A DNA stretch of 64,000 bases from a phage: the NCBI GenBank assembly GCA_020241125.1, contig GCA_020241125.1_4708.1, one strand, 5' to 3'. Made by a program: the position numbers and the translations under genes. Positions 24,598-52,895 of this stretch are shown here, in pieces (position 1 is the stretch's first letter; the number at the start of each line of letters is the position of its first letter). The notes beneath the pieces were generated by a model. It worked only from the letters and a program-made list of their open reading frames with translations, was not told the DNA's origin and did no database searches.

Positions 24598-24690
24598 CTT
24601 GACATCCTTTTATATTGGATTGGTTGCAATTGTCTTAAATAGATGATAAGATATTTTGCTCTTATCACTAAGGTAATGTAGTCGCGAAAT
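24598..24690 (-). promoter_or_regulatory. Conserved promoter/5' leader element, copy A
   Basis: Two blocks shared with 52806..52895 at the same spacing from the ATG: proximal (minus orientation) CAATCCAATATAAAAGGATGTCAAG-ATG and distal TTTCGCGACTACATTACCTTAGTG about 69 nt upstream. Confidence 0.5.
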
Positions 24691-24725
24691 AAACTGCGTT
24701 AACACGAAATAAAAAACAGCATAGA

Positions 24726-24768
24726 ACCCTCCTCCCACATCCTTCAAGAGGACGGTGGGAAGAGGGAG
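24726..24768 (-). terminator. Conserved palindromic hairpin (member 6)
   Basis: CATAGAA-CCCTCCTCCCAC...GTGGGAAGAGGG, one mismatch. Confidence 0.5.
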
Positions 24769-24771
24769 AGA

Positions 24772-25173
24772 TTAAATGTCGTGGACGGCAATGCCGTTTA
24801 ACCAGCAATACAGCTTAACGCGACAGGAATACCGCTTCGTTGCGGCAACCATTTCATCGCGTAAACGCTGGTATATTTCATCCTGGTGTTCACGATCAAT
24901 GGGGTAATCAGCCCAACATTCGATCATGACGTCACCATTCGTCAGAATCGTCGTACGCATCCTGTCCTGGATACGGCGGTCTTTCCCGGCATTAGGGAAA
25001 TACATTCCTTCAGTACGAATAAGGTCGCCGCAAGGCATGACTAACCATTCGTTCGTTTTGCCGGTATTCTTATAATCCATTACAGCTTGCATTGCGGTGT
25101 CAACGCTAAAAGAAACATAATTCCAAACGGATGTCCAACGATAGATTGCGGGTTGTTCGAGTGTTTCGTTCAT
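24772..25173 (-). CDS. Hypothetical small protein
   Basis: 133-aa ORF. Confidence 0.5.
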   Translation of the reverse strand: MNETLEQPAIYRWTSVWNYVSFSVDTAMQAVMDYKNTGKTNEWLVMPCGDLIRTEGMYFPNAGKDRRIQDRMRTTILTNGDVMIECWADYPIDREHQDEIYQRLRDEMVAATKRYSCRVKLYCWLNGIAVHDI

Positions 25174-25226
25174 GGAGTGCTTTTCCTATTTTTATTTTCT
25201 GCACAGGATAAATTCAACGGCATAAA

Positions 25227-25260
25227 GCCCTTCCCTGCCCTTATATGGGGCGGGAAGAGT
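25227..25260 (-). terminator. Degenerate palindromic hairpin (member 7)
   Basis: CATAAAG-CCCTTCCCTGCCC-ttatat-GGGGCGGGAAGAG-TTTATG; imperfect stem. Confidence 0.4.
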
Positions 25261-25387
25261 TTATGACCGCAATGAGAATCTCTCACGACAAGCTCACGAC
25301 GATTATCGCATCACCCCGCGAGTGAGGGAGATCAGGATCACCTCCTACGTCGTAACGACAGTAATCCCGTTAACGTCGCCTTAGGCA

Positions 25388-26014
25388 TTATGCGAAGCGA
25401 CGCATGTAACCTGCCAGATAGTTACGTGTATCGAAGTAAGCAATTTCAGGAATTGCGATATTAAGGTCGATAGCACGGATTTCAACCTGGCGACGGCTTT
25501 CATCATAGATCGCATCCATCAGACGCAGTACTGTCAGGAAAGCCATGCGGGTATGGTAGTCCAGCGGCATGTTATCGATGCCACGATACAGATAACGGTT
25601 TGCATTAAATGCTCCTTCGCTGTTATCTTTCCAGATCTTCAGAATATCAGCAAAGGCGGTGCGGAAAACCTCAGGATTATCCACATCCAGTAACGCACGG
25701 AAGGCAGACATTAAAGACCGCTGATGGCGGATCAACGACTGCGGTGTTTGCGGCATGGTCGGACCCATTTCTTCCGCATATTTCTGGAACGGGGCAACCA
25801 GGGTTGCGGCACGAGAAGCCACGATAGAAACAGCAGGCGATTCTTTCACCGCTGGTTTCGCAGGCTTTTCTTCAACAACGGTTTCCTTCTTCTCAACAGC
25901 GACCGTTTCCGGCTGTGCTACAACATCACCAACCGGAGCATCTGCAACGGTGGTTTCTACCGCAGTAATCTCCTCGTCCATTTTTGCAGAACGTTGGTCT
26001 TTATTCTTGCTCAT
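25388..26014 (-). CDS. Hypothetical protein with acidic low-complexity N-terminus
   Basis: 208-aa ORF; AAGGAAATAAAC upstream of ATG. Confidence 0.5.
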   Translation of the reverse strand: MSKNKDQRSAKMDEEITAVETTVADAPVGDVVAQPETVAVEKKETVVEEKPAKPAVKESPAVSIVASRAATLVAPFQKYAEEMGPTMPQTPQSLIRHQRSLMSAFRALLDVDNPEVFRTAFADILKIWKDNSEGAFNANRYLYRGIDNMPLDYHTRMAFLTVLRLMDAIYDESRRQVEIRAIDLNIAIPEIAYFDTRNYLAGYMRRFA

Positions 26015-26039
26015 GTTTATTTCCTTTCATTTAACAAGG

Positions 26040-27341
26040 TTAACTAATATAAAGTTCGGGATCGTAAGGCGCTAACGATACACTGGCGTTATGCATTGCT
26101 TTCATCATAGTGTTCATGAAAACGTTGTTTACACCGGTGATCTCTGCCCCGATCGCGTCTGGGGTTGGAGCCATCGCGTTACCGCAACAGGTAGCACAGT
26201 ATTCCAGTGGGCCTGCTTTACAACGTTGAGGATCACGTAACTTGATGGTCTGTCCTTCCAAGGAAGCAAGTAATTCAGCATCAATAAGTTTAAGCGCTGC
26301 GCCGTCGATCATGTAACGGCCGACAAGCAGCTTATCTTTGATATGATCGCGGTTTACCGTGAACAGAATATGTTCGTGGGTACCACAGTCGTCCATCGTG
26401 ATTTTAAGGTTCTGTGTCGCACGTTGTGATTCTTTCGCCGTCTGTCCCGCTAAAGCGGTCAGTGCGCCACGTGAGAACGAACCTGCACGTGCGCTGTTGT
26501 TGTACTCCGCCCAATGGTCGACACGCATCCCTTCAGCCAGGCTGTGTGTGATAACGTTACGTTTACCAGGGTCAACGAAGTCGGCTTCAACCCCCATCAT
26601 GATGTGCGTTTTCTTTCGAGTATTACCGAAACTCTTACCGGGGTTAATATAGAACCCTTCCGATTCATCACCCTTAAAGGATTCCTTATCCATTTTGGTC
26701 AGCGTGGCTTCGAGTTTGATCAGTTCTTCAGGCGTGAACTTACCTTCCTCTTGTAAGCGTGCTAACTCTTTATCGCGATAGGCAATAATATCATCATCGA
26801 CCGTTAACGCTTTATCACTCATTGATGGAACAATTAAACGGTTGATAGCGGTTAACGCACTAATATTGTTGGTGAATTTCTTCACTTCGCTTGCGTACAA
26901 CGGACCAATTGGACGTTCGTTAGGATCGGGTATTCCCTCTTCAGGATCGTCAGCGACGCGTGGCGCAATCAGTGACTCCAGTGTACCGCTGGTCAACCGT
27001 CCTGCCTGGTATTCAATCTGAATACCGAAAGCATCATAAAGGACGTACATATTGAACAACGCTTCACCGAAGGTTGTGGTGGTTGTATTCTTAACCGACG
27101 GTAGATCACCAGGTGCAAGCTCCAATGGCTCCCAGAAACTCAACAGGGGTTTTGTTGGCTCGGTTTCCCATTGGTGTTCTTCACCGTCGATGGTAACCGT
27201 AACGACGTTACCTTGACGACGTAATTTAGGCTGATACTTCTCAGCGCCGCCTTCCGTAAAAGCAAATGCGTCGTTAATCCATTCAAGATAACGGTAGTGC
27301 CCTTCACGCATCGCGTAAAGGAAATATTCACGAGGTGTCAT
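26040..27341 (-). CDS. Hypothetical protein with C-terminal Cys cluster
   Basis: 433-aa ORF; Cys cluster CKAGPLEYCATCCG suggests metal binding; otherwise unrecognised. Confidence 0.5.
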   Translation of the reverse strand: MTPREYFLYAMREGHYRYLEWINDAFAFTEGGAEKYQPKLRRQGNVVTVTIDGEEHQWETEPTKPLLSFWEPLELAPGDLPSVKNTTTTTFGEALFNMYVLYDAFGIQIEYQAGRLTSGTLESLIAPRVADDPEEGIPDPNERPIGPLYASEVKKFTNNISALTAINRLIVPSMSDKALTVDDDIIAYRDKELARLQEEGKFTPEELIKLEATLTKMDKESFKGDESEGFYINPGKSFGNTRKKTHIMMGVEADFVDPGKRNVITHSLAEGMRVDHWAEYNNSARAGSFSRGALTALAGQTAKESQRATQNLKITMDDCGTHEHILFTVNRDHIKDKLLVGRYMIDGAALKLIDAELLASLEGQTIKLRDPQRCKAGPLEYCATCCGNAMAPTPDAIGAEITGVNNVFMNTMMKAMHNASVSLAPYDPELYIS

Positions 27342-27354
27342 GTAACAACTCCTT

Positions 27355-28233
27355 TTAAACCCGGGTCAGGTCACCGTGACATGAAACGAACTCTGATAAC
27401 GCTCGGGTTGCTTCTTTGGATTCTTCAGCCATCGGGAAGTTTGCGGTAATAAGTTCTCGTAAGACAGGGACGAGTTCATTATCTTCGAGATCGGAAGCTA
27501 AGGCGAATGCAATCAGTTCTTGGGTGTATGCATACGGTTGCTGACGTAATGCAGTAAGCTGATCCCGACACTGCGACATTAGCAGGTCCAGTGGAACCGC
27601 TATCGTACCCCCTTCATCAATATACTGGCTGAACACTGGTGGGAACGCATCGCTGATGACACGAATACGTCGACGAATATGATCCGGAATCTGGACGTTT
27701 TCTTCATCGACGACGTTTTCGCTATCTTTCTCCAGCTTCTTGGTCAGTACCTCTTGAATGCGTGGAAGTAAGCTTGAATGCACGAAACCGATTAATGGGG
27801 TTACGTTAACAGCATCAACGCCGTAAATATAATGCGCGCATTCCGCTAGCGCTTCAGCTGTGGTGTAGTCTTCATCTTCAACGATAGCGAGTAGAAAAGC
27901 GGTATCGTCGTGTGTTTCCAGGTCTAATAACGTAGACGCTAGCGCATGAAGATATTTCAGGCTATCCAGAGTTAGCTGCCCTTCGTTAATTCGGATCCCG
28001 AAGGCAAGCAATTGTTGTTTATAAAGTTCGATACATCCGTTTGTTAAAATGATGTCTAATTCGTTTAAATCGTATTGTTCCCCAGCACCTGACAACATCG
28101 TACTGCAGAACGTTTCCAGTTGTTCACATTTAAAATCTTGGTATAAACGATGTATGCAGTGCTGTAACAGCGTACGCCTTGTTTCAGGGATCTTACCTTC
28201 TAACAAAGCCAAGACGGAATCAATCATATCCAC
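27355..28233 (-). CDS. Hypothetical protein
   Basis: 292-aa ORF; ORF-track start is GTG, true start probably the ATG 6 nt downstream. Confidence 0.5.
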   Translation of the reverse strand: MDMIDSVLALLEGKIPETRRTLLQHCIHRLYQDFKCEQLETFCSTMLSGAGEQYDLNELDIILTNGCIELYKQQLLAFGIRINEGQLTLDSLKYLHALASTLLDLETHDDTAFLLAIVEDEDYTTAEALAECAHYIYGVDAVNVTPLIGFVHSSLLPRIQEVLTKKLEKDSENVVDEENVQIPDHIRRRIRVISDAFPPVFSQYIDEGGTIAVPLDLLMSQCRDQLTALRQQPYAYTQELIAFALASDLEDNELVPVLRELITANFPMAEESKEATRALSEFVSCHGDLTRV

Positions 28234-28323
28234 TCCGATGCGGTAAATGTCTACTAGCTCTCATAATCTATTGAAGAAACTACCAGCTTACGCCAACTTA
28301 GATTAATCAGGAGTAACCATCCC

Positions 28324-28797
28324 ATGCCAGTTTCATCCAAACCAAGAAAAAAATCCGTAGGAAACCCTAAAGCTCAGGAAACAACAGCAATTCGTTGGGA
28401 CGAGTTACGTGAACCTATCGAAAACTGCGAATTGTTATTAGGTACCCTGGGTGCAGCTATTTACCAAGCGACGCAACCCTGTCGTTTACGATTAACCCAA
28501 AACAAACGTGATGAGTTCGTTGCATTATCAACAAGCACGAATAAAGATCTGACCGAACTTCAAACCGAGTTGACGACGATCAAGAACTCCATCACGCCGA
28601 TGTACGGTAAAGAAGTTGATGAACAAAGTATTCTGTTACAGTACAACTACGGGATGTCGTTAATGAACATCCTGGAACGCGCATCCGATATTCTGCGTCC
28701 TGACGTTGCACGCCTAAGCCAGCTGCGTGTCGAAGGGATGGAGAACCAGATCCGATTCGCTAACAGTGTTAAATCTCAAGGAGCCACCGAAGCATGA
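28324..28797 (+). CDS. Hypothetical protein
   Basis: 157-aa ORF; AGGAG about 11 nt upstream; 4-nt overlap with next gene. Confidence 0.5.
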   Translation: MPVSSKPRKKSVGNPKAQETTAIRWDELREPIENCELLLGTLGAAIYQATQPCRLRLTQNKRDEFVALSTSTNKDLTELQTELTTIKNSITPMYGKEVDEQSILLQYNYGMSLMNILERASDILRPDVARLSQLRVEGMENQIRFANSVKSQGATEA

Positions 28798-30458
28798 GCG
28801 AACAAGAAAAAGAAGTCGTGACGAATCAGGAAGCCGTTGAGCGTTCAGAGTCGTCCGTTGAAACAACGATTCCGGCAAGTTCCGAGCCTGTTGGTTCCAC
28901 ACAGCAGGAAAGTAAAGACGAAGTAGTGGCTCCAGAAGCAACCCGTGAAGAAGAACCATCACATCCACCGCTGGTCGATTTCTCGAAGGCAACGATACGT
29001 TTCCAATGCGAAGACATTCGTCCTAAGAGTCCGAAGAAAACAAAACGTCAGCCGTTGGTGTTACCGCTGTATTCTCCACGTGTGCAGACAACGTATTACC
29101 GGGAATACATCAACGAAGCAATGGATACCGTGCAAGCCATTGTCGCTCAACGCGGTAAACCGACAGACGAACAATTTGATAAATTCAGTAAAGCGGTGGT
29201 GCAATCGGTTGCTGATGGACAATATCATCCGCGTGGCCCAGCTCACGATCGCGCCTTGGAACGTAAGGGCAGTCAGTGGACTAACGTACCCGTAGACTCA
29301 TCGGGTGTTGGTCGCGTTATTCCTGGCATTCCACAACCGAACCATATCCCTGATGATGTCGAAGCGCCGCTGACAGGAACCGATGCGATCTATTTTGCCA
29401 TCCGTAATACGAAATCAGGTGCGCCTGCGGTAATGCCGTTATGGCATAGCGGTATTAAGCTGCAGTTTAATCCGCCGTCAAATGAACGTGTTGCAATTAT
29501 GCACGAACGTATTGCACGCGATAAAATCCTGGGTGGACGTGATAGTACCGGTTTCCTGTTTTCAGCAACCTCGATTATCACCATGAAGCACGCTATCGAA
29601 TTAGCATTAGAATGCTGCTACATGGCCAACGTACCGAACCTGGATATCCAGCGTTTGAAAGACATTATTCCGGTTACCGATGTTCCAGCGTTATTGCTGA
29701 ACGTGCTGGTAACCATGTACCCGTACGGATATCCTTACGTACAGACCTGCTATCAGAATCCAGAAACCTGCGACTATCGTGTTGAAGATACCGTAAGCTT
29801 TGCGAAACTCTATCAAGTTGACAACAGCGCGATAACCAAACGTATGCGACAGATCATGACCGAAGGTCCGGTCATGACGGATGAACTTTTGCGTGAGTAT
29901 GCAAACGAACTGGGTGAAACAAACTCCCGTACGCTGGATCTGTCCGACAACGGTTCTGTTATCATTGAACTTGAAGTACCGAAGATTTCACGTCAGATCG
30001 CCATGGGCGAACGCTGGTTAAGCGATACCCTGGAAGATCTGCGTGATATTCTATCGCGTCCGTCAATGACCGAAGAAGAGCGTGATCGTGTTATTCGTGA
30101 ACGTCAGTTCTATAGCTGGATGCGTCAGTATGATGCGTGGATCAAATCGATGCACGTGTCAGTAAACGGTACCATGCGTCGTGTAAGCGATGCAGATACG
30201 GCAACGGTATTAGCACAGCTGTCACGAGACAGCGACCTTCGTGAACGTTATATTGACGGGTTGATGCAATTCATCGGTGATTCGACGATTGCGCTCGCAG
30301 CGATGCCTGCCTGGAAATGTCCGAAATGTAATGCCGATATTGCTGACAATCTGCGTGACCAGAAATACTACGATCTGATTGCTTTGGATGTACCCCAGCT
30401 TTTTTTTACCCTAAACTCCGTCCAATCTCTTCAGGAGGGGATGGACGCGGTATTCTAA
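28794..30458 (+). CDS. Hypothetical protein with C-terminal CxxC motif
   Basis: 554-aa ORF; acidic N-terminal tail; WKCPKCNADIADN near C-terminus. Confidence 0.55.
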   Translation: MSEQEKEVVTNQEAVERSESSVETTIPASSEPVGSTQQESKDEVVAPEATREEEPSHPPLVDFSKATIRFQCEDIRPKSPKKTKRQPLVLPLYSPRVQTTYYREYINEAMDTVQAIVAQRGKPTDEQFDKFSKAVVQSVADGQYHPRGPAHDRALERKGSQWTNVPVDSSGVGRVIPGIPQPNHIPDDVEAPLTGTDAIYFAIRNTKSGAPAVMPLWHSGIKLQFNPPSNERVAIMHERIARDKILGGRDSTGFLFSATSIITMKHAIELALECCYMANVPNLDIQRLKDIIPVTDVPALLLNVLVTMYPYGYPYVQTCYQNPETCDYRVEDTVSFAKLYQVDNSAITKRMRQIMTEGPVMTDELLREYANELGETNSRTLDLSDNGSVIIELEVPKISRQIAMGERWLSDTLEDLRDILSRPSMTEEERDRVIRERQFYSWMRQYDAWIKSMHVSVNGTMRRVSDADTATVLAQLSRDSDLRERYIDGLMQFIGDSTIALAAMPAWKCPKCNADIADNLRDQKYYDLIALDVPQLFFTLNSVQSLQEGMDAVF

Positions 30459-30520
30459 TCGATCCGCGATACGGGTTACATGACGGACAACTTGTTCGTA
30501 ATGATGAAAAAATCTGGGAA

Positions 30521-30880
30521 TTGCTATTAGCCCGTAAAGGCGACGGTGGCATGAAACTGAACATCGAAATGGGTATTGCGTACGATACCATGTTTGGCTT
30601 GTACGATCGTGTTAACGACTGGACGCCGTTGAAATGGGTTGCTCAGCATCCCGCTGAAGATCCCTGGGACAGATTGGGGATTAAACCCTTAATCGAAGAT
30701 TATGTCCGATTCGGTATTAAAGAGTTCATGACGCTGGATGCGTTTTTACAAGCACCGTATCCTTACGCGCAAACGGTACTCAAAATCGCACAAGACGAAC
30801 TGCGGAAACGTAGTGCGGTACTGGACGACGATGAGGACAAGTTACGACGAGAAGAAGAACGTTTACGAAACGGAAAATAA
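30521..30880 (+). CDS. Hypothetical small protein
   Basis: 119-aa ORF; start may be internal Met (MKLNIEMG). Confidence 0.45.
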   Translation: MLLARKGDGGMKLNIEMGIAYDTMFGLYDRVNDWTPLKWVAQHPAEDPWDRLGIKPLIEDYVRFGIKEFMTLDAFLQAPYPYAQTVLKIAQDELRKRSAVLDDDEDKLRREEERLRNGK

Positions 30881-30881
30881 A

Positions 30882-31391
30882 ATGGCGAGATTTACCAGTT
30901 TGATTGGGTTGGATATTTGGGAAACACCGGCTGACGTTCGGGTTATTCCTGTTAACACCGTCGGTGTGATGGGACGTGGTCTTGCCAAACAGGCAGCCGA
31001 TCGTGTACCCGGTCTTCTTGAAGCGTACCGTAAGCAATGTCAAGATGGGTTTAAGGTGGGCGAAGTCGTGTCGTATCAACACGGTGATAACGATCAACTC
31101 ACCTACGTGTTGTTTCCATCAAAATCGGATTGGCGTGAAAGAACACGACGCGAGTATATCGTTAACGGTTTACTGGCGTTAAAAGCATGGTTACTGGAGC
31201 TTCAGTTCGAAAGAGACGGCTTCTCATATCGGCGTCCGGCTGAACCGCTGATCGTTGCAATTCCTCCGGTTGGTTCTGGTTGCGGTAATATCGGTTACGG
31301 ACAATCCGAAACAATCCAGCCTCAGTGGGTACGCGCACAAATCAAACAGTATCTTGCCACCGTACCGAACGTTCATTTCTACTTGTTCTAA
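30882..31391 (+). CDS. Macrodomain protein (TARG1/DarG-like ADP-ribose processing fold)
   Basis: MARFTS... start immediately after stop of upstream gene; VIPVNTVGVMGRGLA, KVGEVV and IAIPPVGSGCGNIGY...W align by eye with TARG1 CISEDCRMGAGIA, KSGEVAV and MPRIGCGLDRLQW; the longer ORF-track start (30738) overlaps the upstream gene. Confidence 0.55.
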   Translation: MARFTSLIGLDIWETPADVRVIPVNTVGVMGRGLAKQAADRVPGLLEAYRKQCQDGFKVGEVVSYQHGDNDQLTYVLFPSKSDWRERTRREYIVNGLLALKAWLLELQFERDGFSYRRPAEPLIVAIPPVGSGCGNIGYGQSETIQPQWVRAQIKQYLATVPNVHFYLF

Positions 31392-31407
31392 CGCAACGGT
31401 AACATAA

Positions 31408-31439
31408 CCCTCTCCCTTCCCTGCTGGGTTGGGAGAGGG
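31408..31439. terminator. Conserved palindromic hairpin (member 8) at convergent junction
   Basis: CATAA-CCCTCTCCC-ttCCCtgctGGGtt-GGGAGAGGG-cTTATG. Confidence 0.6.
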
Positions 31440-31456
31440 CTTATGCTGTTATGCTA

Positions 31457-31831
31457 TTAATGTTCGTTCCAGATGGCATCTTCCGGTGGAACAATAGGAT
31501 CTTTCTTCGGCATTGATGGCACTTCATGGCGATGTTTACGGAACTGCCTATCAATAACCTCACGAAGCCGGTACGCATCAACCCATGTTGATTTATTGAA
31601 CAGCTCCAATGTCACAGTTAATCGTGTTCTTGACATTGAATAGCTTTTCTTTGCAATCAAATTGGGATAATTCAGTTGAGCGAACCACGCACGTATTTGT
31701 GCTTCGGTAAAAGCGATGCTGTAATAACTAAGTTTACCGTCATTAAAATCGTGCGCGTGGGTGTAACGTCCAGCGTAACGCCAGACAAGATGCACATTCA
31801 GATCGATCCATGGTGGGGTGGTATCAGCCAT
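31457..31831 (-). CDS. Hypothetical protein
   Basis: 124-aa ORF. Confidence 0.45.
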   Translation of the reverse strand: MADTTPPWIDLNVHLVWRYAGRYTHAHDFNDGKLSYYSIAFTEAQIRAWFAQLNYPNLIAKKSYSMSRTRLTVTLELFNKSTWVDAYRLREVIDRQFRKHRHEVPSMPKKDPIVPPEDAIWNEH

Positions 31832-31840
31832 GTGTTACCC

Positions 31841-32410
31841 TCAACGATTCTTCATCACTTTACCCAGGCTTTCGATATTATCCCAAAAGCGATTTTTACT
31901 TGGCGCATCGCCGACGATAACCGACATCAAATCACGACGTTCGCGACTGATGATGCCTTGTGATTTCCAGATCACCATCGTCCAGCAAGCGGCCAGAACG
32001 AACAGATGGTTAATGCTCGGTTTGGTTTGCGCGATGAACGCAAGCCATGCCCAGATACCGGTGTATACTAGCGTCACTAAAAAGAGCGAGATTGTTGCAA
32101 CGACAACAACGAAGTTTTGGACAGCGGGTTGATTAGCGTTATCATGAATAGCGGTAAGATCAGGAAGATTACCTTCAACTGAACTCGTTTCATCGATTTC
32201 CAATTCTTCGATTTCTTTTCGTGTGTCAGGAGCTAATCCAGCATCATCGAGATGCTTTTTTAACCGCTGTATGCTTAATCGTTGACCGACAGGAATGTTG
32301 ATGTTGTCGTAACTATTAAGCGCATCAACCAGGGAGCGTCCATCAACGAGAACCAAGCTCGCGGTACCCATCGTTTGCGGTTTTATTTTGTAAAGGTCTT
32401 TTACTTTCAT
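31841..32410 (-). CDS. Hypothetical protein with internal hydrophobic segments
   Basis: 189-aa ORF; hydrophobic stretch VVVATISLFLVTLVYTGIWAWLAFI. Confidence 0.5.
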   Translation of the reverse strand: MKVKDLYKIKPQTMGTASLVLVDGRSLVDALNSYDNINIPVGQRLSIQRLKKHLDDAGLAPDTRKEIEELEIDETSSVEGNLPDLTAIHDNANQPAVQNFVVVVATISLFLVTLVYTGIWAWLAFIAQTKPSINHLFVLAACWTMVIWKSQGIISRERRDLMSVIVGDAPSKNRFWDNIESLGKVMKNR

Positions 32411-32431
32411 GTAGACACCACCTCCAACGTG

Positions 32432-35044: not shown

Positions 35045-35066
35045 TAAAAACCTCAGCCCTTTAGAA

Positions 35067-35708: not shown

Positions 35709-35819
35709 AGTGTTGTCCTATACTGCGATGATTGAGATATCGGATGCCGGATGTGTGTTGCCATCAGGTGGTACGTACAGAAACACCCACAGATAAAACA
35801 GTAGCTTCTCTAACTTCAA

Positions 35820-36572: not shown

Positions 36573-36578
36573 ACTTAA

Positions 36579-41225: not shown

Positions 41226-41338
41226 AAGCGCACCCTCCTCCAACAATCGAATTAATATGCAAAAACGCCTCGAAACAGGAGTGCGATTCGAGGCTAACGT
41301 AAACAGTCTTAACGACCGCATAAAATTCCGCGCATATT

Positions 41339-41371
41339 GCCCCTCTATCCCGACAAAGCGAGATAGAGGGG
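41339..41371 (-). terminator. Palindromic hairpin (member 10)
   Basis: CATATTG-CCCCTCTATC-ccgacaaagcga-GATAGAGGGG. Confidence 0.5.
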
Positions 41372-41383
41372 AGGATAATACGA

Positions 41384-43153: not shown

Positions 43154-43175
43154 GGGGCGGTAACCGCCCCATCGG

Positions 43176-46100: not shown

Positions 46101-46772
46101 CGTCGGCGTTAACGGCTCCAGCGTTAAGTAGTTGCTCCAGTCAATCTGTCCGCCAACCACCGATGGGGTAATCTCTAATAACTGACACCATTCATAACGG
46201 TCCGGTACACTACTGGACGTTGTTGGTAAAGGTAACTTGTATACGCCAGTACGATTCAGATCGAACGCTTTTCTAGCCGATCCTAAATCAACATAAATAC
46301 TCGATGATGCGCTTGCACTATATGCCCCCAAAGCACCTAGCGTTGACCGATACATTGAGATGAACAACGTATCTTTCCAGTAAGGGTTATCCTTGGTTGG
46401 TTCTAAAGCGATTTGTGCGGAGATGCTGTTCCATGTCCCTAACTGGTATGTCGCATTTAAAGATTCTTCTGTGAAATAACTTTCTGCAATCGTCAGATGG
46501 AACTGCTCGTTCAATAACGCGAGTGCGGCGCGGCCAGTAACATCCTCGTTACCGGTTTCTTTTTTCACGATCGCGCCGAACGGAAACAGTGTCGCGAATG
46601 ACCGTTTTGGTTTATTAACCGTAACCGTCCCTGTGTAATTTCCAACACCGTCAAGTTTTTGACTATCGCCAACAGCAGTGACTGCGATACCATCAGCCGG
46701 GATATTTGTTTTATTTAGTACATTGAGTTGGTCAACCAGATCCTGCTTATCGTCAGGTAAGAATGTCGCCAT
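43176..46772 (-). CDS. Hypothetical very large protein (1198 aa), probable tail/baseplate-associated protein
   Basis: Long ORF embedded in the tail-fibre cluster; no recognisable motif; lacks the shared N-terminal anchor. Confidence 0.5.
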   Translation of the reverse strand: MATFLPDDKQDLVDQLNVLNKTNIPADGIAVTAVGDSQKLDGVGNYTGTVTVNKPKRSFATLFPFGAIVKKETGNEDVTGRAALALLNEQFHLTIAESYFTEESLNATYQLGTWNSISAQIALEPTKDNPYWKDTLFISMYRSTLGALGAYSASASSSIYVDLGSARKAFDLNRTGVYKLPLPTTSSSVPDRYEWCQLLEITPSVVGGQIDWSNYLTLEPLTPTFPVMEIDTTYYFLLWTFNHKDWYVKQITASERYNDVAQLIGKWMITASPVNFVGYGHARFLTRNTGTFTDPETDHYVLNESGVMVNNRHFIAATRQEAQPDGDATTEGQSLLILGAGIFSHTTDNTKLKAHYLTLAEASFDAYIKAFYAGLEPPDTPTRWIANWIVNGKQPVLAHYPLAKDDYPTHGGFHDTAVTFTNGIGKITHGAPTFGEYMDLVVQVYEGKLGWQNLNADVFKTNDDGTIDWDTKGTVFPIEKVALRTKRYVSADGDDLEACTDDEVGTIVLKNKSVSGSYLVAWAPRVPVEYGGYLIKTNECQHNRPIQVPVTRDYMGNASDAEQWFCEAAYTLYRLTQQERYQKAYKASLFTIEEYTRIDANDKFFRQVKGTDRYDTDGIAYTYTYPSKAPFTITRDTDGWIVIQASSAQIYLEQQAIPFRVNRDSILRVTCGGKDTAGVAIPVEISLSLSLDKTEAKAKTYKLVLPSSAEPKEWDFKIGSLIPADAVDEASASTGDAVTGSVLISADKVGWKDDVAITTEFSEAVEDSWDGLFLKAQLTAAGGQFEFNPTAKQIVRQVSYFASIDYNVRVEDANGWRWWQMLPATTARNTLTLSANGWTLSGYQPNHAGTDPKPSAPVWGDGSTEILFLPDDGDIAEGVFKLYAINNPPSTYATDDGYTMLFTLKATFEAEGTLRVGDCTIVNQRLDPLPYTPGIIPFSNNYIPNAPTFDSWRGQPYPGYQHPWVFLDMDVTAERRDLMIQNVVNFWYDSQQWYHQKFGVLGPGASAYVWDRWDAPSGSKVNDFTMYHFGDQTAWSGYQPRAFFSAVRLYAGLLDHGLAVPEKLTTYISHWIDFLFTYQQENAYQSPTDFPMDKPPAFIPNDFTGHMAGLWLAGASLAMLYGHPNDKGYPVAVNVYNEIVENYINRYTVDDVMNGGWSPAPDSTNLGRDGMYFGFWSGEILRGLGYYIALLRDVKPTI

Positions 46773-46785
46773 TATTTACTCCACC

Positions 46786-47616
46786 TTAATCGTAACTAAA
46801 ATAAAGTTTGCTGCTGACGCCGCTATCGGAATGAGGTTTTAACACCAGAACAGAGCTTCCGAACGACGGAAGTATTGGAACATCTAAATCGTTCGCATCG
46901 GCAACTTTTCCATTATAAACGACATTGGCTGTTGTGATGAGTTCCCAGGCTAAGGTATAACTCATTGAAATCAGCGACGAGGCTAAACGGAATGCATTGT
47001 ATCCTTCTGGAGTATCTCCAACCGACATCGTACGTATCGCATCTTGCGGCGGTAAATTTAGCTTGATGCCGTAGGTGCTGAATGTGTGGAAATCCCCTTG
47101 TTTACTATCTTCTGGATAATACGAGGTTAGCGGTTCTCGCACCGTAATCAGTTCGCTAATATCGGTACTTACCGCTTTTCGGGCGAGGAATTGAAACGTA
47201 CCGTACCACGATGCTGATGTATCAGAATGAACGGGAACAGCTATGGTTTTCTCGTCGCTTTCAAATTTAACCTGCGACACTAACGCTGAAGAATCAAAGA
47301 TCGTTAAATCGATCTTCAACCCATACTTCTTAAACAGCTGCGTTAAGCAGTCTGCTATCGTCGTCTTATCAGCAACGACAATAAAAGGTTGGTGTTTGAT
47401 AAAGAGCTTATTAATGTCTCGACGTTGAAGATAAACCTGTACGGGGTCTTCGATATAGTAAGCCGATTGTGGTGCGGGGACTATAGAAAGGCGTAACCGA
47501 CCTGATGCACCATACCAGGCTGGCGTTAACGTAACGTCTGACAGAGACAACGGGTGCTGGAGATAGGCGTTTATTTTAGATAACACTTCCTCCTGCCATG
47601 ATGCTTCAGGATACAT
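46786..47616 (-). CDS. Receptor-binding-protein family member with shared N-terminal anchor domain
   Basis: 276 aa; N-terminus YLQRRDINKLFIKHQPFIVV...YGLKIDLTIFD aligns with other RBP N-termini. Confidence 0.5.
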   Translation of the reverse strand: MYPEASWQEEVLSKINAYLQHPLSLSDVTLTPAWYGASGRLRLSIVPAPQSAYYIEDPVQVYLQRRDINKLFIKHQPFIVVADKTTIADCLTQLFKKYGLKIDLTIFDSSALVSQVKFESDEKTIAVPVHSDTSASWYGTFQFLARKAVSTDISELITVREPLTSYYPEDSKQGDFHTFSTYGIKLNLPPQDAIRTMSVGDTPEGYNAFRLASSLISMSYTLAWELITTANVVYNGKVADANDLDVPILPSFGSSVLVLKPHSDSGVSSKLYFSYD

Positions 47617-47665
47617 GCTGACCTCATAGATGATCGTTGATAGGAAAGAAACCTAATTCATACCA

Positions 47666-47733
47666 TGGGAGCCTCAAAAAAAAAAAACGAAAAAATAGGA
47701 AAACGGTGTTCATCCTTTTTAGGGATGAACACC
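47666..47733 (-). terminator. Intrinsic (rho-independent) terminator
   Basis: Perfect 11-bp stem GGTGTTCATCC/GGATGAACACC (47705..47733) followed on the minus-strand transcript by a long U-tract (plus-strand A-run 47666..47700); lies just downstream of gene 47755..48330. Confidence 0.8.
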
Positions 47734-47754
47734 GCGTACCGTTATATCGAACGA

Positions 47755-48330
47755 TTAATGAGGAATCAGATCGTTAAGCTTTTCTTCTTCAATGACAAAG
47801 AAGTTGTTCTGGTCGTCTAAATCTGTTAACAGGACTTGTCCGACAGTAAAGCACGTACCGCCCTTCTTAGGCACCCATACCGGCTCATTCGTTACCTTAT
47901 CGGGATACCATTTGAAACGATTGGTATCCAAGAAGAACGCTGCTTTGTTTGCTTTATCGGTTGAACGATAGCTAACCAATGCAGGCCACTCAATCCAGGT
48001 GTTTGTGCATGGTACATGTAAAGGATACCATGCGCGCCAGCGTTTGCCCGGACTGTTAGGATCAACCCAATACTCGGCAGTCAATACAGCATCTTTATAA
48101 TGTTTCTGCATTAACATTTCGAGCACAAGCTCATTGCCTTTTGATGCGTCTAAAGTCACTTCCGTCATATAAAGAGATTTAGGTAATTCAGACTGTTTTG
48201 CGGGTGTTACAACACCGGTAACCAACGGTCTGCTCGGTTTACGTTTCTGTTCTTTCCGACGTGTGTAAAAGAATAGTCCGATAGATACAGCAACAAGTAT
48301 AATAAACAACACTACCTTAATCCAATTCAT
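47755..48330 (-). CDS. Hypothetical membrane-anchored protein
   Basis: 191 aa; N-terminal hydrophobic segment MNWIKVVLFIILVAVSIGLFFY followed by a basic stretch. Confidence 0.5.
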   Translation of the reverse strand: MNWIKVVLFIILVAVSIGLFFYTRRKEQKRKPSRPLVTGVVTPAKQSELPKSLYMTEVTLDASKGNELVLEMLMQKHYKDAVLTAEYWVDPNSPGKRWRAWYPLHVPCTNTWIEWPALVSYRSTDKANKAAFFLDTNRFKWYPDKVTNEPVWVPKKGGTCFTVGQVLLTDLDDQNNFFVIEEEKLNDLIPH

Positions 48331-49076
48331 TCGTCAATATCTCCTTCCACAAACAGAGTCAATTTGATTTCAGGATCATAGAACATGGTAATCACATCAT
48401 CTTGCTCTACTGAACGCTGTGCTGTCCATATTAACTGTTCATCCCGAATATCAAATTTATGTCGTTCGTCACTCACCACAGCTTCCGCATCAACGTAATG
48501 GTAAACATCACCGAGAGGATTCTCAATCCAGCCGCGTACCATCAAACGTTCTTTTTGTTTACGTGTAAAGAAGCGATAGGGATCTTCGCACGTGCGCCAT
48601 ACGTCCCCCTTCTCGCTAACCAGTTCATCATAAACTTTAGAGAGTTCGTCAGGCACCGGAATCAAAATGTTATCTTGATAGTTCGACCAGAAACGACGTA
48701 CGTCTTGGATCAACTCATCGTCTGGGAGTTTAGTCGCTATGTTACTATAATCGATTTCAACAGTATCGATATCAAGACGGGTAAACGGAAGAGCGTCTAG
48801 GTTTCCCACCATGACCTCGATCTGATCATGATGGACACGAATCCATCCATCGAACCATCTGTACCCATCAGCTTGATATAACGTTGTGTGATAAGTGACG
48901 ACGTTAATATCCTCGAACGATTCTAATAAGGCTTTAGCGGCTAAAAGCGGTGAAAAGTTCTTCGATTGTCCTGGTTTACGTATTTCTTCTTTGATAAACA
49001 ATTTACCGAGCAGTGGGTGTTCGATAACAAAACCACAGGAAAGCATGATGCTTCCTTGATAACGTGCTTCTTGCAT
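48327..49076 (-). CDS. Hypothetical protein
   Basis: 249-aa ORF; 4-nt overlap with downstream gene. Confidence 0.5.
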   Translation of the reverse strand: MQEARYQGSIMLSCGFVIEHPLLGKLFIKEEIRKPGQSKNFSPLLAAKALLESFEDINVVTYHTTLYQADGYRWFDGWIRVHHDQIEVMVGNLDALPFTRLDIDTVEIDYSNIATKLPDDELIQDVRRFWSNYQDNILIPVPDELSKVYDELVSEKGDVWRTCEDPYRFFTRKQKERLMVRGWIENPLGDVYHYVDAEAVVSDERHKFDIRDEQLIWTAQRSVEQDDVITMFYDPEIKLTLFVEGDIDE

Positions 49077-49194
49077 TTTTTATTCCTTAAACAAAAGATT
49101 GTCTTTTACGCGACATGATTACAAGTACACAGGTTACTGAATTTCTGTAAAAGTTAATTTTCGTAAACTAAAAGAAAATGTATCCGTGTTTCCT

Positions 49195-49231
49195 GGTTCT
49201 TCCCCTCCACAGCCTCAGGAAGAGAAGAACC
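49195..49231 (-). terminator. Hairpin downstream of gene 49252..49500
   Basis: GGTTCTTC...GAAGAACC outer stem with alternative inner pairings (TTCTTCC/GGAAGAG). Confidence 0.4.
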
Positions 49232-49251
49232 GTTTGCTAAGTTGTTATGTA

Positions 49252-49500
49252 TTAAAATGCATTGATTGGACTGTTCAACGCTTTATCACGGATTTGAATC
49301 GCCGCCAGCATTGCTTTCTGGTACGAATCGTAGGCATCGACAGAAACAGTCGTATCAACCAATTCCTTTAATGCGGATTCAGCCGCTTTTACACGGACGC
49401 GGAACTTGGTGATTGCGTTATCTTTGTTACGATAAACCGTGATGTGGTGCAGCGGTTGAACTTTGGTTTTAACGGATTTAGTTGCTTTGATCGTTTTCAT
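49252..49500 (-). CDS. Hypothetical small basic protein
   Basis: 82-aa ORF bounded by hairpins on both sides. Confidence 0.45.
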   Translation of the reverse strand: MKTIKATKSVKTKVQPLHHITVYRNKDNAITKFRVRVKAAESALKELVDTTVSVDAYDSYQKAMLAAIQIRDKALNSPINAF

Positions 49501-49552
49501 GATGATTTCCTTCTTTATTAGGATGATTACATTTAGTCAGTTTAACAGCATA

Positions 49553-49580
49553 AGCCCTTCCCACCTTACGCAGGAAGGGC
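49553..49580 (-). terminator. Conserved palindromic hairpin (member 11)
   Basis: CATAA-GCCCTTCC-caccttacgca-GGAAGGGC-ATAC. Confidence 0.55.
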
Positions 49581-49593
49581 ATACGGATTTGTT

Positions 49594-50091
49594 TTACGTG
49601 TGTCGTCGTTTACCAAAGAAAATGTGGCTATCTACCACGGTGATATTGGTAGCATGTTTTCTGAAATGTTTAGGGCGAAGATGTTTCGCGTTAAAGAATA
49701 CGGCTCCTCGTGTTGGGTCGGCTTTATGGTAAGCCGCAATGTCAGTATAACGTAATGTTGCGACCTCTCGTGCTATTGCTCTTGCTCGCTCAAAAGCAGC
49801 ATGATCGCGTATGACAATACGCCTTTGTTTTGTCCAGGGGAATTGACCTCTTTGCAGTACGACGTCTCTGACGTTCGTAGGGAATCGGTAGTCCATAGAT
49901 CGATTATGTATTAAAAACGCCACGGAGTATTGCCCTTTTACAGATTCGCCTCTGGCTTCCATATACACAGCGCATGCGACGATCTCTTTCCGGCAATCGA
50001 TTCTAGGTCCTGCGTTCACCGATGCTTGACTGAACGGTGTGATAAGCAACATAACAAGCCCTAAAATCAACGTGTGTAAAATACCTTGCAT
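49594..50091 (-). CDS. Secreted SleB-like cell-wall hydrolase (candidate endolysin)
   Basis: N-terminal signal peptide (MQGILHTLILGLVMLLITPFSQASVNA); CAVYMEARGES matches the hallmark YxEARGE motif of SleB/CwlJ-type hydrolases. Confidence 0.6.
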   Translation of the reverse strand: MQGILHTLILGLVMLLITPFSQASVNAGPRIDCRKEIVACAVYMEARGESVKGQYSVAFLIHNRSMDYRFPTNVRDVVLQRGQFPWTKQRRIVIRDHAAFERARAIAREVATLRYTDIAAYHKADPTRGAVFFNAKHLRPKHFRKHATNITVVDSHIFFGKRRHT

Positions 50092-50344
50092 CTTAATAAC
50101 CTCACGATAAGGTGCTGTCCACTGGCGTCTTGATAACGCATCCCGTCTATCGGGTTGTTCTATTCAGCGGGCAGCAGGTTAGCGTCAGATGTTTGCCCGA
50201 CATCCACGACAGAAATAAACGGTACTGAAAATACGGTCTCCTCTGGTTTGGCAATAAACATAACGTTGGATAACAGAACCCATTTCCCGCATCCAACGCG
50301 GTAAAGGTGTACATCGTTTGAAGTCATATAGTTTCTCAAAGATG

Positions 50345-50749
50345 TTAACCTCTACCGTCGAGCCATAGGTTGTATTTATCCCGAACATACGGCTCACGAT
50401 AAATACGTCGATAGACTTGATGCGGTATAAACTTGCAATGTACGAGTTCGTCGCTTAATTTATGCCGTCGCTCCATACCGTTGTGAATACGACGTATCTC
50501 CCGGATATTAAAGGTTGTTTTATTCAAGAGAATAGACATAATGGCGGATCGATGATCCAGATTAAAGATCGCCATCACGCTTCGTATCTCGCGTAAAACA
50601 ACTTCTCTATCGACAAGGATGCGATTAGTTAACTTAAGATTCTCCGTGATACCCATAACCTTCATCCTCGACACGTCGACACATCGGTAAAAATAAACAC
50701 CAGCTTGTTGCACTGAGGACCGCCGTTGCGACGATATTTGCGATATCAC
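50345..50749 (-). CDS. Hypothetical protein (uncertain)
   Basis: 134-aa ORF overlapping neighbouring ORFs in other frames; start uncertain. Confidence 0.3.
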   Translation of the reverse strand: MISQISSQRRSSVQQAGVYFYRCVDVSRMKVMGITENLKLTNRILVDREVVLREIRSVMAIFNLDHRSAIMSILLNKTTFNIREIRRIHNGMERRHKLSDELVHCKFIPHQVYRRIYREPYVRDKYNLWLDGRG

Positions 50750-51005
50750 TCAATCGAGCATCGGCTTGCCACATAACAAGCATGAAAAGAACGTACGCGA
50801 ACCCATACACGACAAACCGTTTTATGTTACGCGTCGACCATGTACAAATATACAAAAGGGGAAGCTGCCCTATAACACAAACGATGGTTCGGATAACGTA
50901 ATAAACGCGTTCCGTCGTTGTTTCAAAATCGATATTCGTTGCAGAAATCCCAATCATTATAAAAGTGAAAATGAAATAGATTTTTGCGTATGTCTTTAAA
51001 CTCAT
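50634..51005 (-). CDS. Small multi-pass membrane protein (holin-like candidate)
   Basis: 123 aa with several hydrophobic segments (IYFIFTFIMIGISA, VIRTIVCVIGQLPLLYI, VVYGFAYVLFMLVMW). Confidence 0.45.
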   Translation of the reverse strand: MSLKTYAKIYFIFTFIMIGISATNIDFETTTERVYYVIRTIVCVIGQLPLLYICTWSTRNIKRFVVYGFAYVLFMLVMWQADARLSDIANIVATAVLSATSWCLFLPMCRRVEDEGYGYHGES

Positions 51006-51021
51006 GGCTTTTCCCGATCGT

Positions 51022-51255
51022 TTATTTGTGTTTTCCTACATTCCTCAACAAGGTAACGATAACGAATACCGCTATCATCAAGAAGACGAACCATAACCCT
51101 ACGTTAATTCGGGCAGCAGGTTCATCGACCATGAAGAACATCATCCCACAAAACCCAATGACCATCCATGCTAGAACCATCCCCGTTAATCCCCGTAGTA
51201 GCATATGTCCCATCATGAACTCCTTCTTACTTTTTCTGATAAAGCGATGATTCAA
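51022..51255 (-). CDS. Small two-TM membrane protein
   Basis: 77 aa; hydrophobic segments LTGMVLAWMVIGFCGMMFFMV and LWFVFLMIAVFVIVTLL. Confidence 0.45.
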   Translation of the reverse strand: MNHRFIRKSKKEFMMGHMLLRGLTGMVLAWMVIGFCGMMFFMVDEPAARINVGLWFVFLMIAVFVIVTLLRNVGKHK

Positions 51256-51389
51256 ATTTTAGAAACATCACTAACGCGAATGCGAGTAATAACGCACGTA
51301 CCCACATACCTCCTTGACAACTGTTGTACAACATAAAGACCAGAGCGATGCCGCCCATATGCAGGCGGCACTTATCGAACAGTGTTGGT

Positions 51390-51617
51390 TTATACATAAG
51401 AGATCAATCGTTGAATGATTTTTACTTTGCCTTTGCCTGGACCTTTCTTGCGGCGATTCAACAGACGGATACTGTTTCCAGTTACGGTGTCGCCATCATA
51501 ATCAGCCCGGAACTGTGATAAAAAAGCAGGTTGTATCTGATCGACACCAGGATTGCTGTGGAAAGGATTGAGACTTAAAAGAGGGTTAGCTGGAATCATC
51601 GTATTGTCCTTACTCAA
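51390..51617 (-). CDS. Hypothetical small protein
   Basis: 75-aa ORF. Confidence 0.35.
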   Translation of the reverse strand: MSKDNTMIPANPLLSLNPFHSNPGVDQIQPAFLSQFRADYDGDTVTGNSIRLLNRRKKGPGKGKVKIIQRLISYV

Positions 51618-51968
51618 TTATTTACCCAGATAGAGATATTCAGCGCCCTGAACAACGCCGGTTGTTGGATCAACCAGTACGCGAACCCGTGCGTAGGTCT
51701 TGAAAGAGGGATTGAAAACTTCGAAGTCGGCCACTTTCAATTTCACGCTGGGATTGATAGGGTTCTTAACTCCTGGAAGTTCTTTCGGTAATCCGAAGTC
51801 GACTCCATATTCTTCAAGGTCTGCTGGCGTCATGCTCTCCATGGCCATGTAGACCGCTTTTGCTTTATCGTAAACTTCCGGGCTATCCAACAATCCAGCC
51901 TGCGCTGAACCGACAACACTACCGAACAGAATAGCAACAGCAACAAACAATTTAGTTAACGTTTTCAT
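51618..51968 (-). CDS. Small secreted protein
   Basis: 116 aa; signal peptide MKTLTKLFVAVAILFGSVVGSAQA. Confidence 0.5.
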   Translation of the reverse strand: MKTLTKLFVAVAILFGSVVGSAQAGLLDSPEVYDKAKAVYMAMESMTPADLEEYGVDFGLPKELPGVKNPINPSVKLKVADFEVFNPSFKTYARVRVLVDPTTGVVQGAEYLYLGK

Positions 51969-52006
51969 GATCGTTTCCTTAATAACTTAAATAAACCAAT
52001 TTAGTA

Positions 52007-52429
52007 TTAACGTACGGCCGCTACACTGTTAGCGCATGCCTGAATATCATCGGTATTTACGATGATGGTTTCGTTAAACGCACGAATACGCGCACGACGT
52101 GCTTCTTTAAGGCTGGCGATTGCGTTAGCAGCTTGATCTGTATTCGCAAGGCTAATAACTGGGATCAAGCGCATGTCCGGACTGCAGATATTCAATGCCT
52201 GGTATACACGTCCATTGATTCCTACGGTATCAGACATCGGATAGTGCGCACGGCATTGAAATTGACCCATGACAACAAGCGAACGATCTGAGATACCAAT
52301 CTGATAACGACCATCTTCACTGTAGGCGTAGCAGTTATTCCCACGAGCCATCCAGTTAGCCTGTGCTTGCGTGCTAACAAAAGCCAGGGTGGTGACGATA
52401 GCGAATACGATATTTTTGAACAGTTTCAT
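52007..52429 (-). CDS. Small secreted protein
   Basis: Start set at internal Met (MKLFKNIVFAIVTTLAFVSTQAQA signal peptide) because the ORF-track start at 52498 runs through a terminator hairpin. Confidence 0.5.
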   Translation of the reverse strand: MKLFKNIVFAIVTTLAFVSTQAQANWMARGNNCYAYSEDGRYQIGISDRSLVVMGQFQCRAHYPMSDTVGINGRVYQALNICSPDMRLIPVISLANTDQAANAIASLKEARRARIRAFNETIIVNTDDIQACANSVAAVR

Positions 52430-52465
52430 GATAAAGATCCTTATTGAAATAAAATCGGTATAAAG

Positions 52466-52482
52466 GCCCCCATTTAGGGGGA
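52466..52482 (-). terminator. Short GC hairpin, putative terminator
   Basis: CCCCC-ATTTA-GGGGG hairpin immediately downstream of gene 52488..52805, followed by U-rich sequence on the minus transcript. Confidence 0.45.
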
Positions 52483-52487
52483 CCTGA

Positions 52488-52805
52488 TTAGTTTGCACGT
52501 AAGAAATGACCTAGAACCGTTACAATTGGAAACAGTCCTGTAACCGTATTATCACCCGAAAACATCATCTTTGAGTCGTTAACGGTGATGAAACGGATGT
52601 CGGTTGCGGATCCGTCGATAGCGACAAAACGCATTGAGTTCGGTGGAAGATCCTCAACAACTTCCACGAGGTGTTCACGATTTTCAAAGGCTTCTTTAAC
52701 ACGACGCATGAAACGAATCAATGTTCCTTCAGCGTCGGCTTCCAAATGACCTAAGATATCGCGATTATTGCGAATAGCGAATACAGACATTTTAAACATA
52801 CACAT
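52488..52805 (-). CDS. Hypothetical small protein
   Basis: 105-aa ORF; preceded by conserved promoter/leader element (copy B). Confidence 0.5.
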   Translation of the reverse strand: MCMFKMSVFAIRNNRDILGHLEADAEGTLIRFMRRVKEAFENREHLVEVVEDLPPNSMRFVAIDGSATDIRFITVNDSKMMFSGDNTVTGLFPIVTVLGHFLRAN

Positions 52806-52895
52806 CTTGACATCCTCTTATATTGGATTGATTGCTAATAATTCAAGGTGAAGCTGATTACTGCATTGCTTCACCTAGGTAATATAGCCGTGAAA
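52806..52895 (-). promoter_or_regulatory. Conserved promoter/5' leader element, copy B
   Basis: Proximal CAATCCAATATAAGAGGATGTCAAG-ATG and distal TTTCACGGCTATATTACCTAGGTG about 67 nt upstream; near-identical to copy A. Confidence 0.5.

Follow-up and report, generated by a model that had tools for sequence, protein, structure and literature searches.

Two putative early transcription units of a Goslar-like jumbo phage share a phiKZ-type promoter, a start-site hairpin and a conserved translation-initiation block

Every jumbo phage that encodes its own RNA polymerase carries an AT-rich core of ~10 nucleotides (nt), centred near position -10, that the virion polymerase uses for early genes (PMC7598289). 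In AR9, the consensus is AAATATATATTAT followed by six bases and a G at +1, and transcription in phiKZ likewise starts 6 nt after the consensus (PMC5312081). Infection by phiKZ is reported to be resistant to rifampicin, an inhibitor of the host RNA polymerase (PMC4666361). Here, we describe two leaders that resemble these early promoter regions in a 64,000-nt stretch of phage DNA (GenBank assembly GCA_020241125.1, contig GCA_020241125.1_4708.1; hereafter the window). They precede two small minus-strand genes with ATG codons at 24597 (site 1) and 52805 (site 2). Over 20 kb, the window shares 94% identity with the 237-kb Escherichia phage vB_EcoM_Goslar, a nucleus-forming jumbo phage, and judged by its sequence the window is from a Goslar-like nucleus-forming jumbo phage (chimallivirus). 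Several RNA polymerase beta-like subunits are annotated in Goslar, and one of them, gp078, falls within the window at 26040-27341.

The two loci are probably autonomous early transcription units, each consisting of a promoter, a hairpin, a spacer, an initiation block, an ORFan gene and a terminator. Each promoter would be a phiKZ-type element of ~45 base pairs (bp), with an A/T-rich upstream part, the motif TTTC(A/G)CG(G/A)C and a core TA(T/C)ATTAC near -10, followed by six bases ending in T and then by the G that is the predicted start. Presumably, this promoter is transcribed by the multisubunit RNA polymerase packaged in the virion as soon as the DNA has been injected. The transcript would open with a hairpin beginning at the first transcribed base or a few bases before it, and the base-paired 5' end of the mRNA most likely slows attack by the E. 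coli enzymes RppH and RNase E. A spacer of variable sequence would then lead to a 28-nt initiation block made up of CAAUCC, a 9-nt A/U-rich stretch, the Shine-Dalgarno sequence GGAUG, ~5 nt and the AUG. Inheritance or exchange as a cassette probably accounts for the sharing of this block, and purifying selection presumably maintains it; the block may also fold into a weak hairpin over the Shine-Dalgarno sequence, masking it. One small ORFan gene, then a terminator, would complete each unit. A promoter with a structured leader is largely expected phage gene control, an element of a known kind that had previously gone unannotated. The new features are modest, namely the lineage-specific start-site hairpins and the shared, strongly conserved translation-initiation block.

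Both promoters lie on the minus strand, as do all other parts of the two loci described below. In gene orientation, the distal block reads CTA(C/T)ATTACCT(T/A)(A/G)GTGA together with ~30 nt upstream of the CTA. A position matrix built from the Goslar family of such sites gave 51.7 bits for site 1 and 48.3 bits for site 2, with nothing else in the window above 12. A core-only matrix gave 36.4 and 39.6 bits, respectively, with a next best score of 15, and detected no degenerate additional family members. The site 1 promoter (24665..24714) extends from about -48 to +2 and has its core, TACATTAC, at 24673-24680. The site 2 promoter (52871..52920) has the core TATATTAC at 52879-52886, and at its upstream end it overlaps the stop codon (52914) of the gene before it. 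Because a G at +1 after six bases is the rule reported for AR9 and phiKZ (PMC5312081), the predicted start is the G at 24666 for site 1 and that at 52872 for site 2. A T/A-rich element lies upstream at both sites (TTTATTTCGCGAC and TTAATTTTCACGGC).

These two promoters belong to a family that recurs across the Goslar genome. A fuzzy search placed the distal block at ten positions in Goslar, all on the minus strand, and the core TA(C/T)ATTAC occurs 22 times on that strand and once on the plus strand. Thirteen Goslar sites share an extended consensus of ~45 bp, scoring 30-56 bits vs 16 for the next best; all are on the minus (gene) strand upstream of genes, with one inside the short annotated open reading frame gp047. 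One member precedes the gene for chimallin, the nuclear-shell protein, and that gene is in turn followed by one for an RNA polymerase subunit. At the sequence level, T at -1 and G at +1 are present in 13/13 Goslar sites and in both window sites.

Within the family, two forms of the upstream promoter half can be told apart, with one misfit (gp225). Four members, including that of chimallin, have a phiKZ-like A-tract (ATTGAAAAAAATTTCAGG), and eight, including both window sites (24681-24714 and 52887-52920), have TTAAyCCAACATTTTTCACGGC. The two forms may represent two classes of strength or timing. The gp047 reading frame (Goslar 49584-49772, 62 codons) holds, besides its family promoter, a perfect +1 hairpin (GATAACAG/CTGTTATC) and may be a mis-annotated leader of gp046.

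Comparison with phiKZ was based on bases 1-120000 of NC_004629 (L043, L027 and L044; handles of this form denote the sequences compared). Twelve intergenic plus-strand sites in these 120 kb show TATATTAC, five bases and TG, preceded by an A/T-rich tract, and the sequence upstream of phiKZ chimallin (TGAAAAAAATTTGAGATTTATATTACTAAATTGAAT) is a near match to that upstream of Goslar chimallin (TGAAAAAAATTTCAGGGTTATATTACCTAGGTGAAT). The Goslar-type promoters thus share with the phiKZ early promoters the core TATATTAC, the T and G six and seven bases after it, and an A/T-rich and TTT(G/C)AG-type upstream part. They are likewise gene-strand, intergenic and multi-copy elements that stand before the nuclear-shell gene and other early units. 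They differ in that most Goslar-type members have the upstream half TTAATCCAACATTTTTCACGGC, in copy number (13 in Goslar vs 28-32 reported for phiKZ) and in the enrichment of start-site hairpins, which is seen in Goslar and not in phiKZ. The AR9 early promoter is similar in its AT-rich core ending in TATATTA(T/C) and in the G start after six bases, but AR9 has a uracil-containing genome, no phage nucleus and another flanking consensus. The core, the start purine, the upstream element, the copy number and position, and the split RNA polymerase all point to both window sites being phiKZ-type early promoters for a virion RNA polymerase.

The initial annotation of this stretch had described a promoter and leader element duplicated upstream of two unrelated small genes, with two near-identical blocks at conserved spacing. 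The two-block similarity is real and far beyond chance, given the matrix scores above and the proximal block, a 25-nt sequence (CAATCCAATATAA(A/G)AGGATGTCAAG) adjoining the ATG that occurs exactly twice in the window (24598-24622 and 52806-52830) and not at all, even with 3 mismatches, in 100 dinucleotide shuffles. The spacing also holds, with 69 nt at site 1 and 67 nt at site 2 between the TGA of the distal block and the ATG. Resemblance stops at the start codon, and BLASTP finds no alignment between the two proteins even at E<=100, in agreement with the proposal that the genes are unrelated. The proposed phage promoter finds its counterpart in the phiKZ early architecture, including the promoter before the nuclear-shell gene. 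The 9-mer singled out in the distal block fared less well: the extended motif is significant, but site 1 reads TACATTACC rather than TATATTACC, and the bare TATATTACC with 1 mismatch allowed is not enriched in the window (17 found vs 13.7 expected). The proximal block was recovered at these two loci only, in the window as in Goslar, and the distal one at the 13 Goslar sites and two window sites. The promoter likeness reflects membership of a 13-copy family and not a duplicated element; other members are more alike than the window pair (the gp004 and gp182 promoters are near-identical over 38 nt). The ribosome-binding block alone is specific to the pair, and it is separable from the promoter. 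The weaker relatives suggested upstream of the genes starting at 49500 and 52429 were discarded, as neither has the distal block or promoter; at each, a terminator hairpin precedes a generic A/T-rich Shine-Dalgarno region, with a faint likeness to the proximal block (CATCC-N9-AGGA) at 49500 only.

The predicted transcripts begin with hairpins. At site 1 (24643..24668), GTGATAAGA and TCTTATCAT enclose the 8-nt loop GCAAAATA; the core stem, +1 to +7, pairs 24660-24666 with 24645-24651, and the hairpin has a folding energy of -7.6 kcal/mol (z=-3.3). The site 2 hairpin (52846..52876) spans -4 to +27, with a 13-nt loop between AGGTGAAGC and GCTTCACCT. Folded from -8 it reaches -13.2 kcal/mol, and the portion of its stem inside the predicted RNA is GAAGC/GCTTC (5 bp). 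Spacers follow at 24623..24642 and 52831..52845. The former is lineage-variable and replaced in L048 and L053, although its 3' part, CAATTGCAAC (24623-24632), still resembles site 2. The latter, TTGAATTATTAGCAAT, is replaced in L051 and L052.

Conservation of these hairpins was assessed in orthologous leaders from IMG/VR, metagenomes and assemblies, with further lineages reached through more divergent site 1 protein homologues (55-80% identity). Among close orthologues, variable columns number 2/36 in stems vs 12/21 in loops (p=2.5e-5). The core stem of site 1 is paired in 84/84 cells across 12 distinct variants, with one pair changing from G-C to G-U, while all eight loop positions vary and at least seven loop versions exist. 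Pairing at this site is 87% in register vs 37-58% when the register is slid. Site 2 shows no stem changes and 4/13 variable loop positions in its close orthologues, and the divergent variants L051 and L052 keep the stem with a new loop. When the two sites are compared with each other, anchored on +1 by hand, the pairs at +3, +4 and +5 differ on both sides. On the sense strand, the changes within stems are compatible with G-U pairing. The structural evidence, read from sequence, thus combines a conservation contrast between stem and loop with the differences between paralogues. It favours the structured 5' untranslated region that the initial annotation had anticipated, in that stems are kept and loops vary across lineages and three stem pairs show double-sided differences between sites. 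The accompanying claim that conservation runs through the whole leader does not hold, because the hairpin interior, loop and spacer differ in sequence between the sites.

In this lineage, the family as a whole is enriched in start-site hairpins. The +1 base is paired in the minimum-energy fold at both window sites and in 8/13 family members vs 24% by chance (p=0.004), a result contingent on the start site predicted above. The 13 Goslar promoters are also enriched in inverted repeats with a 5' arm that begins anywhere from -8 to +1 (combined p=1.6e-7). The 12 phiKZ early promoters show no such enrichment (combined p=0.12; +1 paired in 4/12), and they rule out the start-site hairpin as a general chimallivirus trait. 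Since the same tests are negative on phiKZ, the hairpin is a lineage-specific trait of these E. coli-infecting phages and not a test artefact or a trait of the promoter class.

In E. coli, a hairpin without free 5' bases is a classic means of slowing 5'-end-dependent decay, and 5'-terminal stem-loops such as that of the ompA leader stabilise mRNA. The predicted transcripts share with ompA a hairpin with no or almost no unpaired 5' bases. They differ in that the stems often run into untranscribed promoter bases and in that the RNA stem of site 2 has just 5 bp. No attenuator or intrinsic terminator was called at either leader hairpin, where the bases that follow are CTATTTAAG and TGAATTAT, and the best Rfam match reached 30.8 bits vs a gathering threshold of 50. 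A switch that sequesters the ribosome-binding site was also considered. A full-leader fold placed the 3' arm in a duplex with the Shine-Dalgarno/AUG region, and for site 1 of the window lineage such a duplex is unusual (P about 0.001). The switch was rejected because site 2 and the L048 lineage show nothing comparable, and because the 5' hairpin is present in the minimum-energy fold of 6/8 lineages.

A 43-nt module, TTCATGATGCCATGCATCATGAACGCGACGCGTAAGCGTTACC, was found directly after the TATATTAC core of two early promoters (gp021-type and gp075-type) in three genomes: at 3055-3097 (+) of L016, at about 1041 (-) of L034 and upstream of the gene at 601 in L047. Between L016 and L034, the copies show 100% identity. 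In order, the module comprises an inverted copy of a +1 region, a small hairpin with a GTAA loop and TTACC, after which the native +1 region follows again. L007 carries a different insert, of ~52 nt, built on the same plan, and the native gp200 promoter of Goslar looks similar. The 43-nt sequence may be a small mobile or recombining promoter module.

The proximal block forms the third component of the two leaders. Including the ATG, it covers 24595..24622 at site 1, where it reads CAATCC, a 9-nt A/T loop, the Shine-Dalgarno GGATG, TCAAG and ATG, and 52803..52830 at site 2. The Shine-Dalgarno stretch is AAGGA or GAGGA, 7-8 nt from the AUG. In the other retrieved Goslar-like genomes, as in Goslar, the block occurs at these two loci only, and among the 13 early leaders the window pair is identical at 34/45 positions, with every other pair at <=22. 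Close orthologues vary in 3/56 block columns vs 48/158 third positions of coding codons (p=8.5e-5), and the variation falls on the same two positions at both loci. In L048, L053 and L057, the block is 93-96% identical to that of the window, and the first 120 coding nt are 62-67% identical. Across all variants, CAATCC and GGATG are invariant, while 6/9 intervening bases vary (p=0.028). The two invariant segments could pair as a CAAUCC/GGAUG mini-hairpin (-2.5 kcal/mol) that would mask the Shine-Dalgarno sequence. In L046, a Logan contig from SRR7532897, the block adjoins a gp075-like gene at 601, with unrelated sequence upstream and neither early promoter nor hairpin. Because this contig has the block alone, the promoter/hairpin and the block are separable modules; the block goes with the start of the gene and not with the promoter.

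Several observations weigh against reading these loci as early units with a stabilising 5' hairpin and a conserved initiation block. The promoter class, the polymerase, the early timing and the exact start are assigned here by homology, and no start-site map for Goslar or Goslar-like phages was found in the searchable literature. The Goslar GenBank record annotates terminators and no promoters. The set of 13 promoters, smaller than that of phiKZ, may represent just one early class. The polymerase class does not require the hairpin, because phiKZ early promoters are without it. Most helices begin at -7 to -1 when folded from -8, with stems reaching untranscribed bases, and the site 2 leader folded from +1 (-5.2 kcal/mol, z about 0) has a weak RNA-only stem. 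Because of these two properties, a role confined to the 5' end of the RNA would be an incomplete account. Covariation within the site 1 orthologues does not rise above the shuffle control, so that the orthologue evidence at this site is one of conservation and not of compensation. The block diverges to 82% identity in L045 and to 67% in L050 and L055, where a new start codon is added, and the site 2 variant L051 has several substitutions in it. Finally, the hairpin that would mask the Shine-Dalgarno sequence is no more stable than shuffles (P=0.10-0.21), and masking is a weak sub-hypothesis.

The strongest alternative concerns the block, which could be an operator through which a post-transcriptional regulator couples the two genes, either a RegA-like repressor or an antisense RNA supplied by the gp182 early leader. 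We regard this as possible but improbable. The ~28 conserved nt exceed what a Shine-Dalgarno sequence and start codon need, CAATCC is invariant in all lineages at both loci, and the block is far better conserved than the adjoining coding DNA. Moreover, CCTTATATTGGA in the gp182 leader is a perfect 11-nt complement that is kept in three genomes (P=0.0035 vs shuffled early leaders). However, this complement was found post hoc, it also pairs locally in its own leader, and the A-variant of the block pairs with it over just 10 nt. No regulator is known, and the block is altered at several positions in L050, L055 and L051. The translational operators of T4 RegA offer a parallel, as they too are conserved A/U-rich sequences over the ribosome-binding sites of more than one early gene; here, there are just two targets and no known binding protein.

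The gp182 complement lies at about 166013-166024 (-) of Goslar and matches the TCCAATATAAG part of the block. It is kept in L004, in L022 at 6824 (+) and in L023 at 191 (-), with flanks that vary. It spans +43 to +54 from its own predicted start, a distance similar to that of the block, and its local hairpin is formed with GTATAAGG. The complementarity could be an RNA-RNA link or a coincidence.

A broader version, which we hold to be somewhat less probable than an operator, would join hairpin and 28-nt block into a control module specific to Goslar-like phages. The hairpin would then help the virion polymerase or an early shut-off factor to recognise early units, the block would co-regulate the two ORFans via a phage protein or the gp182 leader RNA, and the 43-nt module would be a mobile part of the same system.

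The inverted repeat might instead act as DNA, in the form of a cruciform or strand-specific hairpin that aids or gates the virion polymerase, loosely as in phage N4. Such a role would fit the stems that reach back past the predicted start (in many members, from -4 to -7), the gp200 and gp225 repeats, which lie mostly upstream of +1, and the recurrent promoter insertions, in which the core is again followed immediately by an inverted +1 region. Yet the upstream extension of the site 1 stem is lost in L048 and L053, while +1 to +7 is always kept; elsewhere, the pair at -2 is G-U, G-C or A-U. Tolerance of G-T pairs in the stem fits RNA better and favours an RNA over a DNA role, loops of 8-13 nt are poor for cruciform extrusion, and phiKZ promoters of the same class have no repeats. 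The promoter hairpins of N4 lie upstream of the start site and have 3-nt loops, a geometry different from that of the hairpins described here, which lie across or after +1, with loops of 8 and 13 nt. A DNA-level role is unlikely. The upstream extension may reflect start-site heterogeneity, an origin by inverted duplication or a role of the DNA.

Slightly less likely still is that the similarity is a neutral remnant of recent duplication or recombination, in leaders that do nothing beyond providing an ordinary promoter and Shine-Dalgarno sequence. Goslar-like genomes are mosaic in this region, with discordant identities of promoter, block and coding sequence; one contig (L046) has the block without the promoter, and the 43-nt module moves between promoters. 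However, the mosaic is resolved within 90 nt, where invariant stems adjoin loops saturated with changes, the same two block positions vary at both loci, and the block persists where the protein is only 55-78% identical. That the distal block is a host sigma-70 promoter used before the phage polymerases is very improbable, since, despite TATATT matching TATAAT at 5/6 positions and a TTAA-type hexamer ~16 nt upstream, neither site was called by a gene-strand scan for -35 and -10 elements (>=4/6 each, spacing 16-18 nt), conservation is strong outside sigma-70 elements (CACGGC, ACyT and TGA), the A-tract subclass has no correctly spaced -35, and the motif matches the early promoters of phiKZ, whose infection is reported to be rifampicin-resistant (PMC4666361).

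As putative early transcription units, the two loci have the same layout: each consists of a promoter, a leader, one gene and a terminator. Upstream of site 1, a terminator-like hairpin and T-run of the preceding gene (24711..24771) adjoins the promoter. It was read from the sequence, is conserved in orthologues and was not called by the terminator scan, probably because its loop is too long. The site 1 unit ends in a strong intrinsic terminator called by the scan (24129..24146; GGTGGGG, TTCG, CCCCACC and T7), and Goslar has an annotated terminator at the equivalent place. The site 2 unit directly follows the stop codon of the preceding gene and is closed by a G+C-rich terminator-like hairpin (52465..52484) of GGTCCCCC, TAAAT and GGGGGCC followed by TTTATACCGATTTTATTT, likewise read from the sequence and not called by the scan because of its interrupted T-run. 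This layout recalls moron-type cassettes, which also have their own promoter, a single small gene of unknown function and their own terminator within a co-directional array. Unlike morons, the units described here have a phage-specific promoter in place of a host promoter, and they are kept in all Goslar-like genomes examined instead of occurring sporadically.

Goslar is a main model for the phage nucleus, and the family provides a sequence-defined candidate set of early promoters, 13 per genome, for this E. coli jumbo phage and its relatives. Genes behind early promoters are candidates for host takeover or anti-defence, and both ORFans are among them. Knowing which genes fire first, together with a compact cassette of promoter, leader and ribosome-binding site, would aid the engineering of such phages. 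The presence of start-site hairpins in the E. coli phage and not in phiKZ hints at an adaptation of early mRNA to the host RNA decay machinery.

The site 1 gene (24172..24597) encodes a 141-residue orthologue of Goslar gp075, and the site 2 gene (52488..52805) a 105-residue orthologue of Goslar gp105. Both are ORFans, with homologues in Goslar-like phages only, and neither protein matched a family of known function. The site 2 protein has a single weak match to a PHROG, itself of unknown function, and its AlphaFold model is unusable (predicted local distance difference test, pLDDT, 44). The predicted structure of the site 1 protein has a pLDDT of 81, and no convincing structural neighbour of the model was found. 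The first ~40 codons of the site 1 gene (24475-24594) are hypervariable, with 59-67% nucleotide identity to L045, L048, L050, L053, L055 and L057. Over the remainder of the gene, identity is 84-90% in five of the six and 65% in L045, and the leader just 5' of the hypervariable N-terminus is often >90% identical. Because the start of the gene is far more variable than both the rest of the gene and the leader, the hypervariability of the gp075-type N-terminus suggests recombination or diversifying selection.

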